The position numbers and the translations under genes are program-made. Source: a virus (lineage: Duplodnaviria; Heunggongvirae; Uroviricota; Caudoviricetes). From it: a stretch of 4,273 nucleotides of DNA. This document shows, one piece after another, positions 460 to 4,273 of this stretch (its first letter is position 1; each line of letters begins with the position of its first letter). Under the pieces are notes generated by a model, which made no database searches, had not been told where the DNA came from, and saw nothing but the letters and a program-made list of their open reading frames with translations. The stretch is from IMG/VR virus record IMGVR_UViG_2695420650_000010. One strand, given 5' to 3'.

Positions 460-1229
460 ATGAAGTGGATTGTGATTGATACAGTTATCCAGCCATCATG
501 CGGAATATCTTTTTCAGTCATATGGAGTAAAATAAAATTAATAATCTGGTATCAATCGGATGCTTTCTTACCTCCTGAAAGTATATTTACACTGACTCAC
601 ACAGGCATCATGCTCAATAACAAAGTGCTACCTGTAACCATTTACAACGTAGTACCATTCAATAAAACATTCTGGAATTCAATCAAAAATAGCCAGGAAT
701 GCCCTACAAATACAGATAANNNNNNNNNNNNNNNNNNNNNNNNNNNNNNNNNNNNNNNNNNNNNNNNNNNNNNNNNNNNNNNNNNNNNNNNNNNNNNNNN
801 NNNNNNNNNNNNNNNNNNNNNNNNNNNNNNNNNNNNNNNNNNNNNNNNNNNNNNNNNNNNNNNNNNNNNNNATATAGCACCCTGACTGATACTGTAGTAC
901 CTAAGGTTCCAGAAACTGTGATGTATCNNNNNNNNNNNNNNNNNNNNNCAGTCATATGGAGTAAAATAAAATTAATAATCTGGTATCAATCGGATGCTTT
1001 CTTACCTCCTGAAAGTATATTTACACTGACTCACACAGGCATCATGCTCAATAACAAAGTGCTACCTGTAACCATTTACAACGTAGTACCATTCAATAAA
1101 ACATTCTGGAATTCAATCAAAAATAGCCAGGAATGCCCTACAAATACAGATAACGTATTGAATGAATGCTTTAATAACCGTTGCACTCTGCAAATATGTC
1201 CTTATGGACTAAAACAACAAAGTCCATAA
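460..1229 (+). CDS. hypothetical Cys-rich small protein; frame runs through two N gaps and a duplicated 205-bp segment (about 111 aa if the duplication is collapsed)
   Basis: ATG at 460 with AAGGA Shine-Dalgarno; stop TAA at 1227-1229. The frame is open across AT-rich DNA, where stops are frequent by chance. The C-terminal part has C-x10-C-x4-C-x4-C spacing ([23 protein letters not shown]). The minus strand here has no comparable ORF. True length is unknown because of the gaps. Confidence 0.4.
515..719. repeat. direct repeat copy 1 (205 bp), matching 949-1153 by eye
   Basis: Visually identical sequence at a 434-bp offset, ending exactly at the start of the N run. Confidence 0.8.
720..871. 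other. assembly gap (run of N)
   Basis: Contiguous n characters. Confidence 0.95.
928..948. other. assembly gap (run of N)
   Basis: Contiguous n characters; the 56 bp at 872-927 between the two gaps occurs nowhere else in the window. Confidence 0.95.
949..1153. repeat. direct repeat copy 2 (205 bp), matching 515-719 by eye
   Basis: Starts immediately after the N run and keeps the same reading frame as copy 1. Confidence 0.8.
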
Positions 1230-1232
1230 GGA
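1199..1232. repeat. 12-bp perfect inverted repeat TCCTTATGGACT / AGTCCATAAGGA with 10-nt spacer, overlapping the stop codon of the plus-strand ORF
   Basis: Arms at 1199-1210 and 1221-1232 are exact reverse complements. Function unknown; could be an RNA hairpin or a protein-binding site. Confidence 0.6.
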
Positions 1233-1248
1233 GTTTACTCACATCTGA

Positions 1249-1285
1249 CAAAATCAATATAAACAGCCCCTCCGGAGAGGGGCTG
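1249..1285 (-). terminator. rho-independent terminator-like hairpin for minus-strand transcripts
   Basis: 9-bp GC-rich stem CAGCCCCTC / GAGGGGCTG (1264-1272 and 1277-1285) with 4-nt loop. On the minus strand it is followed by the U-rich tail TTTATATTGATTTTG; on the plus strand there is no U tract. Confidence 0.5.
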
Positions 1286-1676
1286 GAGAGTGGCGCTATG
1301 TGCCATTGCATGGTGCCGGGTGCCTCCCGGTGAATTCAGTACCAGCACCTGAATCCGCGATTATCCCATATACCTACTCGCTGATTGCCCCTCCGCACAG
1401 GGGGATTCACCATGCCAGTTTCTTTTAACAAACTCCCCGCAAACCAGACAACAGTCAACCGCCTGAATTGTGAAGTATTTAAAAATTTCTCCCGCTAACT
1501 GATACCCGGCTAACAGTCTGGCGTTTTCTTTTTCAGCAACGGGAAAGCAACAACCACCACACCCGCCACCAGCACACCGTCAGCCAGCACTGACATTATC
1601 CGGCTGCTGCAATGCCATTCACAAAAACAGTAAGCAATCACTTTTTACCGTAACAGGTGATAATCCAGATATGTAT

Positions 1677-2030
1677 CTACCCCAGATGAGTAATCCGAAG
1701 TTCATCCATACCACAGGTCCTGGCTATTCTGTTGTACTCCTGAACAAGAGCAAATAATTCTGAATTAGCAACCATGAACTCATCGCAAACCCTCTGTATA
1801 GCATCACTATTCAGAATAATAACGTCTCTTCCCGAAAGACGATCAGGAGTACAGAACAAAACTGTCAAACGGCTGAAGGCCTTTGCTCGTGCTGCATTGA
1901 CTATATCAATACGCTGCCTAAGGATGAAACACCCCGACGCCTCATCAATATTCACTCTACCCACACCATATGAATGATAAATATTTAATGCTGAAAAAAC
2001 CATTAGACCGTATAACAAACACTCAATCAA
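1677..2030 (-). CDS. hypothetical protein (117 aa from TTG at 2030; 108 aa from the first ATG at 2003)
   Basis: Longest ORF in the cargo segment and in late-operon orientation. No convincing Shine-Dalgarno before either start and no recognisable motifs, so confidence is low. Confidence 0.35.
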   Translation of the reverse strand: MIECLLYGLMVFSALNIYHSYGVGRVNIDEASGCFILRQRIDIVNAARAKAFSRLTVLFCTPDRLSGRDVIILNSDAIQRVCDEFMVANSELFALVQEYNRIARTCGMDELRITHLG

Positions 2031-2140
2031 TACTTAACAGAACTTTTATTTTTGACAAACATAAAATATTTTCAACAATATCCTGAGCCAGGTATATTTC
2101 AGTATAAGGCTCTGCCGGAAGGAATCTGGAAGAATGAATA

Positions 2141-2217
2141 TGGCGCGCTGTACTGGATTCGAACCAGTGACCGATTGCTTAGAAGGCAATTGCTCTGTCC
2201 GGCTGAGCTAACAACGC
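2141..2217 (-). tRNA. tRNA-Arg (anticodon UCU), 77 nt with encoded CCA
   Basis: Reverse complement folds as a cloverleaf: acceptor GCGTTGT/ACAGCGC (one G-U pair), D-arm GCTC...GAGC, anticodon stem ATTGC/GCAAT with loop CTTCTAA, T-arm ACTGG-TTCGAAT-CCAGT, discriminator G, CCA. Similar from memory to E. coli argU; likely argN or argO of a lambdoid prophage, but I cannot tell which. Confidence 0.85.
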
Positions 2218-2230
2218 ATGATGCAGATAA

Positions 2231-2258
2231 TGGACCGCCATCGGGGACTTGAACCCCG
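2231..2258 (-). tRNA. partial tRNA, 3' end only (T-arm, acceptor 3' arm, discriminator U, CCA); 5' part lies in the N gap
   Basis: Minus strand reads CGGGG-TTCAAGT-CCCCG (a T-arm with TTCRANY loop), then ATGGCGG-T-CCA. Identity cannot be assigned. Confidence 0.4.
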
Positions 2259-2299
2259 NNNNNNNNNNNNNNNNNNNNNNNNNNNNNNNNNNNNNNNNN
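2259..2299. other. assembly gap (run of N) inside the tRNA cluster
   Basis: Contiguous n characters; true gap length unknown. Confidence 0.95.
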
Positions 2300-2367
2300 G
2301 TACTGGATTCGAACCAGTGACCGATTGCTTAGAAGGCAATTGCTCTGTCCGGCTGAGCTAACAACGC
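2300..2367 (-). tRNA. tRNA-Arg (anticodon UCU), second copy, 3' end truncated by the N gap
   Basis: The visible 68 nt are identical to the corresponding part of the tRNA-Arg at 2141-2217, including the anticodon loop. Confidence 0.75.
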
Positions 2368-2376
2368 TGAATACCG

Positions 2377-2399
2377 ATAATGGACCGCCATCGGGGACC
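2377..2399 (-). repeat. 23-nt tRNA 3'-end fragment, direct repeat of 2227-2249
   Basis: GATAATGGACCGCCATCGGGGAC occurs at both places. At 2227-2249 it continues into a proper T-arm; at 2377-2399 the adjoining sequence has no T-loop, so this copy is a remnant. Confidence 0.6.
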
Positions 2400-2467
2400 C
2401 GCCCCCGCACCAACAACCCTGTTATCGTGTCGTCTGCTCTTCCTGATAAGCTAATGGCGGTTTGTGA

Positions 2468-2543
2468 TGGTGGCCCTTGCTGGATTTGAACCAGCGACCT
2501 GGCGATTATGAGTCGCTCGCTCTCACCACTGAGCTAAAGGGCC
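2468..2543 (-). tRNA. ileZ: tRNA-Ile2 (anticodon CAU, lysidine type), 76 nt with encoded CCA
   Basis: Reverse complement GGCCCTTTAGCTCAGTGGTGAGAGCGAGCGACTCATAATCGCCAGGTCGCTGGTTCAAATCCAGCAAGGGCCACCA. Acceptor GGCCCTT/AAGGGCC, anticodon loop CTCATAA, T-loop TTCAAAT. Closely resembles E. coli ileX/ileY as I remember them. The ileZ-argN-argO arrangement is characteristic of lambdoid prophages. Confidence 0.85.
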
Positions 2544-2583
2544 GGGAGCAGAATAATAACGGCGCGTAATTAATTCTTCAATA

Positions 2584-3642
2584 TCATCCGTTCTGGCTGA
2601 CTAAATCCTGTACTTCCCGAACCGTCTGCTCAAAACGTTCAGTCTCCAGCTCAACGCCAATTGCACGACGCCCGAGCGCCAGTGCCGCTTTCACTGTCGA
2701 ACCCAACCCCATGAAAAAATCTGCAATCAGGTCACCCGGACGACTGCTAGCGCTGATTATCTGCTGCAGCATTTCTGCCGGTTTTTCGCACGGATGTTTC
2801 CCGGGATAGAACTGCACCGGTTTATGCGTCCACACATCGGTATACGGCACCTGCACCGTCACGCCAAAATACCGCCGCAGATGTTTATATTCACTCAGCA
2901 GCTCCGCATACTGCCGGTTCAGTGAGGTATACGTATCCACCAGCTGGTGGTGGAGCTTTTCCAGTTCACCACGCCGATGCTTCTCTTCTGCCACCCGGGC
3001 AAACAGCGCCTGTAATTTCAGATAATCGCTTTCATTCGGCAACTGCCACTGACCGGCACTGAACCAGTGCGACACCATGTTTTTCTTTCCTGTGGCATCT
3101 GCAATCTGTTTTGCCGTTATCCCCAGGGCAGCTCGCGCATCACGAAAGTAAGAAATCAGCGGGGCCATCACATGCTGTTTCAGTGCACTGCCCTTCGCCG
3201 CATACCCGGCATCTTTCGGACGATACGGCCCCTGATAATGTTCCGCGAACAGAATGCGCTCTGTGGCGGGGAAATACGCCCGCAGGCTTTCCTTGTTGCA
3301 TCCGTTCCAGCGTCCGGACGGCTTCGCCCAGATAATATGGTTCAGCACACTGAAGCGTTCACGCATCATGATTTCGATATCAGATGCCAGGCGATGACCA
3401 CAGAACAGGTAAAGACTTCCGGCAGGTTTCAGCACCCGCCAGAACTGCGCCAGACACTGGTCCAGCCACTTCAGGTAATCATCGTCGCCCTTCCACTGGT
3501 TATCCCAGCCCTCAGGCTTCACTTTAAAGTACGGCGGGTCCGTGACTATCAGGTCAACAGAATTTTCGGGTAACGACCGGATAAATTCCAGGCAGTCGGC
3601 GTTGATTAACTCACAACTGGATATTTTTACAGTATTAAGCAT
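2584..3642 (-). CDS. DNA methyltransferase, beta-class N6-adenine or N4-cytosine (N6_N4_Mtase family), apparently orphan
   Basis: 352-aa ORF, ATG at 3642, TGA at 2584. Motif IV DLIVTDPPYF near the N-terminus; HPCEKP (HPxxKP-type) and AdoMet-binding motif I DFFMGLGST near the C-terminus. That order is typical of beta-class amino-methyltransferases (CcrM, M.HinfI, M.RsrI-like). No endonuclease gene is adjacent in the window. Target site cannot be inferred. Confidence 0.92.
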   Translation of the reverse strand: MLNTVKISSCELINADCLEFIRSLPENSVDLIVTDPPYFKVKPEGWDNQWKGDDDYLKWLDQCLAQFWRVLKPAGSLYLFCGHRLASDIEIMMRERFSVLNHIIWAKPSGRWNGCNKESLRAYFPATERILFAEHYQGPYRPKDAGYAAKGSALKQHVMAPLISYFRDARAALGITAKQIADATGKKNMVSHWFSAGQWQLPNESDYLKLQALFARVAEEKHRRGELEKLHHQLVDTYTSLNRQYAELLSEYKHLRRYFGVTVQVPYTDVWTHKPVQFYPGKHPCEKPAEMLQQIISASSRPGDLIADFFMGLGSTVKAALALGRRAIGVELETERFEQTVREVQDLVSQNG

Positions 3643-3674
3643 GGATCATTAAGCCTGTCTCTGATAGGCTCATT

Positions 3675-3693
3675 CTGCTTTTGCGCAAAGCAG
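3675..3693. promoter_or_regulatory. near-perfect 19-bp palindrome CTGCTTTTGCGCAAAGCAG upstream of the methyltransferase start
   Basis: Arms CTGCTTT / AAAGCAG around a central GCGC, 33-51 nt upstream of the ATG at 3642. A weak promoter-like pair, TTGCGC then 16 nt then TATCAG on the minus strand, puts the -35 at the palindrome centre. Candidate operator. Confidence 0.35.
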
Positions 3694-3734
3694 TGGGCCT
3701 GAGGTTTGCTTGTGAACCCAACGCATGAGCAGAT

Positions 3735-3774
3735 GGCTGGTGGGTGCCCCTAACACCCACCNCCCCCCCCAGCC
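3735..3774. repeat. inverted repeat GGCTGGTGGGTG / CACCCACC...AGCC interrupted by a poly-C tract (poly-G on the coding strand) containing an ambiguous base
   Basis: Left arm 3735-3746; right arm 3754-3761 plus 3771-3774, split by c-n-cccccccc at 3761-3770. The minus strand is G-tract rich (G8, GGTGGG, GGGG). Confidence 0.6.
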
Positions 3775-3791
3775 GCCCATTTACCACAAAT

Positions 3792-3815
3792 AAAAAAGCC
3801 TTCACTGCGGAAGGC
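3792..3815 (-). terminator. rho-independent terminator-like hairpin overlapping the stop codon of the 65-aa ORF
   Basis: 6-bp stem GCCTTC / GAAGGC (3798-3803 and 3810-3815) with 6-nt loop, followed on the minus strand by TTTTTTATTTG. The stem is short, so moderate confidence. Confidence 0.45.
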
Positions 3816-3999
3816 GTCTGTAACAACCGAACTGATAGTCTGCCAGACCCGCCATAACCAGCTGGGTCAGTATTAACTGGCAGCGTTCGCGTGAAAGGTA
3901 AGTATTCTGCGCTATCTCCCCGACTGTCGCCGGTTCGGTAACGCTTAATTCATTAAACACCACTCTGGCGGTTTCTGTCATATCCTGCTGTTTTAGCAT
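3802..3999 (-). CDS. hypothetical small protein (65 aa), possible helix-turn-helix DNA-binding protein
   Basis: ATG at 3999 preceded by a good Shine-Dalgarno (AAAGGAAAAG, about 6-nt spacer); stop TGA at 3802-3804. The segment TVGEIAQNTYLSRERCQLILTQLVMAGL has an HTH-like pattern. Sits between two terminator-like hairpins, directly upstream of the methyltransferase. Confidence 0.6.
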   Translation of the reverse strand: MLKQQDMTETARVVFNELSVTEPATVGEIAQNTYLSRERCQLILTQLVMAGLADYQFGCYRRLPQ

Positions 4000-4117
4000 G
4001 TCTTTTCCTTTTCCGGTTAACGTGACACACCAATAACTCTTGTCGAAAAAGCCAGCAAGCTGAAAGACAGGTATTCACCGCCACCAGCGCGTTTACTGTA
4101 CTGACGCGATTTCAGTC

Positions 4118-4143
4118 ATAAAAAACCCGCTCGGCGGCGGGTT
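4118..4143 (-). terminator. rho-independent terminator (tR'-like) for minus-strand transcripts
   Basis: Stem CCCGC / GCGGG (4126-4130 and 4137-4141), extendable by two A-T pairs, followed on the minus strand by six U (complement of A 4120-4125). Sits about 45-65 nt downstream of the candidate promoter. Confidence 0.6.
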
Positions 4144-4190
4144 GTAGAAACTCTTCTAACGTCAGGCATAAAACGCCCATCGTTATGACG

Positions 4191-4218
4191 AATTTACCAC
4201 AGATTCCGGAAAAATCAA
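4191..4218 (-). promoter_or_regulatory. candidate late promoter (pR'-like) with extended -10
   Basis: On the minus strand: -35 TTGATT (complement of 4213-4218), 16-nt spacer, TGgTAAATT (complement of 4191-4199). As I remember it, the lambda pR' -10 region is GGGTAAATT with -35 TTGACT. Position between the end of an upstream ORF and a terminator fits pR'/tR' architecture. Confidence 0.45.
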
Positions 4219-4273
4219 CCTTGTTACCTAGTTACCTTTTTTAACTGCCGCTCAGCCCATGCTTCTTCAATAT

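Follow-up and report, generated by a model that had tools for sequence, protein, structure and literature searches.

An apparent argO duplication in a lambdoid prophage tRNA cluster is probably an assembly artefact

The locus

The window, the whole 4,273-nt stretch of IMG/VR virus record IMGVR_UViG_2695420650_000010 analysed here, is a short draft scaffold, rich in gaps, that crosses the late-regulatory region of a lambdoid prophage. Four N runs interrupt it (720-871, 928-948, 2259-2299 and a single N at 3762), and all of its tRNA genes lie on the minus strand (Table 1). Judged from gene content and order, the locus is an ileZ-argN-argO tRNA cluster of lambdoid or Stx-type prophages. The earlier note on this DNA had rightly named it as a cluster of this type, and both order and synteny match those of annotated relatives.

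Table 1. Features of the window, with positions counted from its first nucleotide
Feature	Position	Strand	Basis
Second gap region, repeat 515-719 / 949-1153 inside iraM	515..1153		Repeat search, reference mapping
argO tRNA-Arg(UCU) copy 1, complete	2141..2217	-	ARAGORN; Rfam, 68 bits
Direct repeat 2150-2248 / 2300-2398, bracketing an N run	2150..2398		Repeat search, alignment
Intact-type argN tRNA-Arg(UCG), last 28 nt, at left contig end	2231..2258	-	Identity to O104:H4, Eco889
41-N run, taken as a scaffold gap and the join of two contigs with different alleles	2259..2299		Flanks overlap on references
argO tRNA-Arg(UCU) copy 2, visible part 2300-2367	2291..2367	-	Rfam tRNA, 50.3 bits at 2294-2367
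Decayed argN homologue, tRNA-like pseudogene, 80 nt	2381..2460	-	Alignment, fold
ileZ-type tRNA, anticodon CAU	2468..2543	-	ARAGORN; Rfam tRNA, 72.5 bits
N6/N4 DNA methyltransferase gene	2584..3642	-	Pfam PF01555, E=7.9e-42
Single N and C8 run, NCCCCCCCC	3762..3770		Comparison with 32 related loci

The gene neighbourhood is that of known prophages. Along the minus strand the order is a tR'-like terminator, a small TrmB-like ORF, the DNA methyltransferase, ileZ, argN, argO and a DUF3927 ORF, which places the tRNA cluster downstream of the methyltransferase gene. The DUF3927 ORF and iraM, the latter on the plus strand, follow downstream as they do in the cryptic prophages of EC958 (ST131) and O104:H4. 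Synteny of methyltransferase and tRNA genes is the same in phiP27, EC958, O104:H4 and ATCC 11775, with Q just beyond in relatives, and this methyltransferase context is the late-operon module of lambdoid prophages. On the sequence as it stands, ARAGORN calls two tRNA genes, a tRNA-Arg(UCU) at 2141-2217(-) and a CAU tRNA at 2468-2543(-). It labels the CAU tRNA Met; RefSeq and phage records carry it as tRNA-Ile or ileZ, and the homologous position is annotated ileZ/tRNA-Ile in phiP27, Stx2a_WGPS8 and EC958. Both ileZ and argO are near-identical to annotated genes of phage records, and the complete argO aligns with the annotated argO of phiP27 and Stx2a_WGPS8.

Gene order, orientation and position downstream of the antiterminator Q / DNA methyltransferase module are shared with the ileZ-argN-argO clusters of 933W-type Stx2 phages, phiP27 and cryptic lambdoid prophages of E. 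coli. One report mentions Stx2 phages with two tRNA-Arg genes and one 'tRNA-Met' (PMC7946995). Unlike the Stx-phage cluster, that of the window is followed by the DUF3927 / iraM module and not by stx genes. Its right-hand allele differs from the typical cluster in carrying a decayed argN, resembling phiP27, and its apparent second argO is foreign to the known arrangement. Our open-access literature search found no paper naming ileZ, argN and argO together. The underlying biology, comprising rare-codon tRNA genes, a late operon and an often-decayed argN, is already known or incrementally descriptive.

Two smaller features lie at either side of the cluster. A GC-rich hairpin followed by a T run at 4143-4124(-), upstream of the small TrmB-like ORF and the methyltransferase, would fit the lambdoid late terminator tR' by its position. 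Between the DUF3927 gene and argO, a 117-aa ORF at 1677-2030(-) is without a match in Pfam, and EC958 and O104:H4 have no annotated CDS at the corresponding place; it is unlikely to be a gene.

A decayed argN allele

The middle gene of the cluster is present in the window in decayed form. The 80-nt segment at 2381-2460(-) matches argN of Stx2a_WGPS8 and O104:H4 in a column-by-column alignment, and alignment across Stx2a_WGPS8, O104:H4, ATCC 11775, phiP27, mEp460 and EC958 makes it the positional homologue of argN, tRNA-Arg(UCG). The acceptor stem and D arm are kept. On folding, a 7-bp stem with a 3-nt loop takes the place of the anticodon arm, the 7-nt anticodon loop is missing, and the T loop reads GCGGGU in place of the UUCAAGU of intact argN. 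For comparison, the intact argN of O104:H4 folds as a cloverleaf, and ARAGORN reads the argN anticodon as UCG across relatives.

ARAGORN makes no call at 2381-2460, nor does the Rfam tRNA model hit it at E<=10, and we rejected the idea that the segment is still a tRNA; it does not supply a functional tRNA-Arg(UCG) between ileZ and argO. The other argN sequence in the window, the intact-type end at 2231-2258, is at 28 nt too short for its tRNA function to be judged.

The decayed allele is not peculiar to this scaffold. A 100-nt interval containing it is identical and single-copy in mEp460 and EC958. phiP27 carries a close variant, and its record annotates ileZ and argO only. The decayed argN also occurs as a single copy in many IMG/VR contigs. 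Run over 127 related clusters, ARAGORN finds argO/argN(UCG)/ileZ in 77 and argO/ileZ in 37, so that about 37 of the 127 lack a callable argN. As a side observation, the allele is conserved and was also seen at related loci L001, L002 and L004.

The middle tRNA also varies between prophages in other ways. L027 has an argN backbone with anticodon UCU, L093 has GCG, and the trio of the IMG/VR locus L068 differs altogether, with Arg(UCU), Thr(UGU) and Ile(UAU).

A 99-nt direct repeat around the tRNA gap

The irregularity of the cluster resolves into one direct repeat. Positions 2150-2248 and 2300-2398 match over 99 nt at 95% identity with a period of 150, one copy on either side of the N run at 2259-2299, a resemblance far beyond chance. 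The five mismatches all fall in the 13-nt argO-argN spacer, which reads ATGATGCAGATAA in one copy and TGAATACCGATAA in the other; the right flank carries TGAATACCGATAA. Within the repeat, the argO core is identical over 68 nt (2150-2217 and 2300-2367), just as the earlier note had said of two tRNA-Arg(UCU) copies. The Rfam tRNA model places argO copy 2 at 2294-2367(-), with its 3' acceptor strand hidden in the Ns.

Beyond the left-hand argO lies the end of an intact-type argN. The minus strand of 2231-2258 reads CGGGGTTCAAGTCCCCGATGGCGGTCCA, comprising a perfect T-arm, the acceptor 3' strand, a discriminator U and CCA, which bears out the earlier description of these elements. From 2141 to 2258 the sequence is 100% identical to argO plus the intact argN 3' end in O104:H4, Eco889 and others, and RefSeq annotates two tRNA-Arg genes at the matching position in O104:H4, Eco889 and other genomes.

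Two further readings in the earlier note fared differently. It had described a 23-nt copy of this tRNA end at 2377-2399, lacking a T-arm. The shared 23-mer GATAATGGACCGCCATCGGGGAC does exist, one position away from where it had been placed, at 2226-2248 and 2376-2398; 5 nt of it are spacer and 18 nt are tRNA. The 23-mer is neither a separate feature nor an orphan: it forms the tail of the 99-nt repeat, and at its right-hand occurrence it is the 3' end of the 80-nt decayed argN. The note had also placed the body of a further tRNA in the gap. Nine of the 41 Ns are owed to argO copy 2, so only 60 nt are available for such a tRNA, and a complete 77-nt argN cannot fit at 2259-2299 provided that the N run has its true length. 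The two argN 3' ends are separated by about 127 nt, which are mostly the argO copy and include the 41 Ns.

The gap flanks overlap on gap-free relatives

We compared the flanks of the tRNA gap with six gap-free relatives, EC958, O104:H4, Eco889, ATCC 11775, mEp460 and phiP27. On the EC958 locus, window 949-2248 maps to 2050-3349 and window 2300-4271 maps to 3251-5216, so the first 99 nt after the gap fall on reference positions that the sequence before the gap already covers. The flanks map to overlapping coordinates in O104:H4, Eco889, ATCC 11775, mEp460 and phiP27 as well. Since the flanks overlap in every gap-free relative examined, the repeat unit is single-copy in each of them.

The flanks have different closest relatives. 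The left flank, 949-2258, aligns ungapped at 99.2% identity with O104:H4 and Eco889 as far as and including the intact argN T-arm. On the right flank, 2300-2583 is 98.6% identical to mEp460, and EC958 and mEp460 have exactly the same decayed argN sequence. By these alignments the two flanks are different alleles of the cluster, the left with an intact argN and the right with a decayed one.

The cluster segment is multi-copy in many E. coli genomes, occurring in up to 11-15 places per genome, and its copies share the 68-nt argO core unchanged. Nine of 120 IMG/VR contigs with an argO core end less than 200 nt from that core (for example L071, L074, L082, L049 and L076), which suggests that assemblies tend to break near it, a count of 9 in 120 that stands without a baseline for comparison.

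The same signature at other gaps of the scaffold

A second gap, inside iraM, shows the same pattern. Here 515-719 and 949-1153 are 100% identical over 205 nt with a period of 434 and flank the N runs at 720-871 and 928-948. The gap flanks overlap on EC958, O104:H4, Eco889 and the near-identical IMG/VR contig L070, each of which has one iraM. Between the two N runs lies a 56-nt island (872-927) that is absent from all four. An ATCC 11775 prophage contains it at 100% identity, in a cassette that occupies the iraM position; 8 nt downstream of the island, that prophage has the homologue of window 1261-1485. An island from an ATCC 11775-type cassette implies that the scaffold threads together alternative cassettes of paralogous prophages.

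A smaller oddity occurs at 3762-3770, where NCCCCCCCC sits between CACCCACC and AGCCGCCC. In 32 related loci CACCCACC runs directly into AGCCGCCC, and the nine bases of N plus C8 are absent. This element is probably a 1-N join or a homopolymer sequencing artefact.

Searches for a tandem argO

The tandem arrangement was sought directly, with a gapped pattern requiring two argO cores 134-164 nt apart. The window itself served as positive control and was found, and a control pattern of argO followed by ileZ matched at least 120 IMG/VR contigs. The tandem-argO pattern returned zero matches in IMG/VR, GTDB representative genomes and JGI metagenomes, and the 120 IMG/VR loci each lack a second argO core. 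One IMG/VR locus with two tRNA-Arg(UCU) calls, L027, was considered as a candidate and rejected: it has no argO duplication, and its second call is an argN backbone whose anticodon has changed from UCG to UCU.

Alignment searches gave the same answer. Tandem argO is absent from the best 40 records in a search of 5,426 complete E. coli genomes. Each match among the best 30 and the best 40 complete E. coli records is 150 nt shorter than the query, and among phage records every one of the 25 matches listed, of 289 in all, likewise spans 150 nt less than the query. The best complete E. coli match is 98.8% identical; a genome with both alleles in tandem would rank first at 100%.

Origin of the apparent duplication

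The irregularities most likely come from a mis-join in scaffolding or from gap filling, within a prophage tRNA cluster that is otherwise ordinary. Two contigs carrying different alleles of a single-copy cluster would have been placed next to each other with the 41-N gap between them. Of these, the left one (949-2258) would run through argO into the intact-argN allele, and the right contig (from 2300 onward) would start inside argO and continue into the decayed-argN allele. Measured against any gap-free genome, the two contigs overlap by about 99 nt and are not separated. Writing such an overlap as a positive gap yields an apparent 150-nt tandem duplication, with a second argO and a second argN 3' end. 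The source sample would then hold at least two related prophages, or two strains, and the join may have been made by a scaffolder or a gap-closer.

Several results argue for this origin. The direct repeat abuts the N run, and its flanks overlap on gap-free references. The segment is multi-copy in E. coli, and no tandem argO turned up in the pattern searches or among the best-ranked and listed records. The pattern recurs at the iraM gap of the same scaffold, and the N plus C8 at 3762-3770 adds a further irregularity. Duplicated flanks of draft-assembly gaps have the same properties, with repeats that abut N runs, flanks that overlap on finished references, and more than one gap in a multi-copy prophage region. 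The tRNA gap differs from these in that its two copies are two alleles, which points to a join between paralogous loci or strains and not to a simple unmerged overlap. Two considerations run the other way: non-identical repeat copies also fit an old, diverged duplication or an unequal crossover between prophage alleles, and the N runs may be masks that hide real sequence and keep its length, which would count against an artefact. The earlier note had listed a mis-join as its last alternative, and the overlapping flanks, the two alleles and the matching signature at the iraM gap all favour it. Its observation was largely accurate; the prophage tRNA cluster is a known one, and what was described on it is most likely an artefact.

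A real tandem duplication of 150 nt, arising for instance by unequal crossover of two lambdoid prophages with different cluster alleles, is unlikely. It would give the minus-strand order ileZ, decayed argN, argO, truncated intact-type argN, argO. That is how the sequence reads in the record; tRNA clusters vary between prophages, and the five spacer changes and different T-arms are the trace expected of a two-allele crossover. Against this, neither the pattern searches nor the best-ranked E. coli and listed phage records gave a gap-free sequence with two argO cores about 150 nt apart, the junction falls exactly in the N run, and the 41 Ns would leave the intact-type argN truncated to 60 nt or less. 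A single duplication also leaves unexplained the iraM gap, with its same duplicated-flank signature and its piece of a paralogous cassette. We consider it rather improbable that the arrangement is real in the specific form of an unequal crossover between co-resident lambdoid prophages, one with intact and one with decayed argN, giving a 150-nt tandem unit. Were it so, argO, the gene of the rare-codon tRNA-Arg(UCU), would be present twice in the prophage, together with a truncated remnant of argN. An under-sized gap is very unlikely. Under that explanation the adjacency is real, a composite or tandem prophage has two tRNA-cluster modules separated by some kilobases, and the missing part of argN, an ileZ and further genes are concealed by the Ns. 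The sizes given to scaffold gaps are estimates, and the left contig would naturally continue into argN, ileZ and onward, as in O104:H4; however, no relative examined has two clusters close together in direct orientation, and the iraM gap of the same scaffold shows flanks duplicated by overlap and not by distance.

The footprint of site-specific integration, as the earlier note had read the duplicated tRNA ends, is almost certainly not the explanation, and we rejected it. It would require the argN 3' end to have been duplicated as attL and attR by an element lying in the gap or since lost. tRNA 3' ends are common att sites, and an 18-nt tRNA 3' end including CCA does occur twice in direct orientation, as at the attL/attR of prophage and genomic-island integrases. 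The window repeat, however, is much longer than a tRNA end: it covers the whole of a second tRNA gene, argO, with the spacer and 18 nt of argN, and so extends beyond the 3' end of the target tRNA. Its copies are 150 nt apart, and only the short interval between the argN 3' ends would be left for an element. No inserted element is present in the window, and Pfam gave no integrase on five of the six window ORFs or segments tested; the 117-aa ORF and an iraM segment had no match. The supposed fragment belongs to a full-length, conserved decayed argN that is single-copy, without a partner repeat, in EC958, mEp460 and phiP27, so 2381-2398 is no att-like remnant of an event at this locus. EC958 and mEp460, with their single copies, carry it independently of any insertion, and the share of related clusters without a callable argN is in keeping with decay of that gene.

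A mis-join of this kind has consequences for how such records are read. Where a short scaffold crosses multi-copy modules of lambdoid prophages, it can show tandem duplications and att-like tRNA 'fragments' that do not exist, and tRNA counts, integration-site calls and prophage boundaries drawn from such scaffolds are untrustworthy without gap closure.

Mosaicism of the methyltransferase side

The two sides of the window differ in how closely known sequences match them. The left side is 99-100% identical to known prophages, and the methyltransferase side (2300-4273) reaches at most 96.7% identity to any of the 5,426 complete E. coli genomes. Nearly every 32-mer of 2300-4273 occurs in some related locus, as in a fine-scale mosaic. 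In a test for assembly chimerism, a greedy exact-match cover of 2300-4273 by the 127 related loci takes 11 segments and leaves 3 unmatched bases; natural controls take 1-25 segments, with a median of 4.
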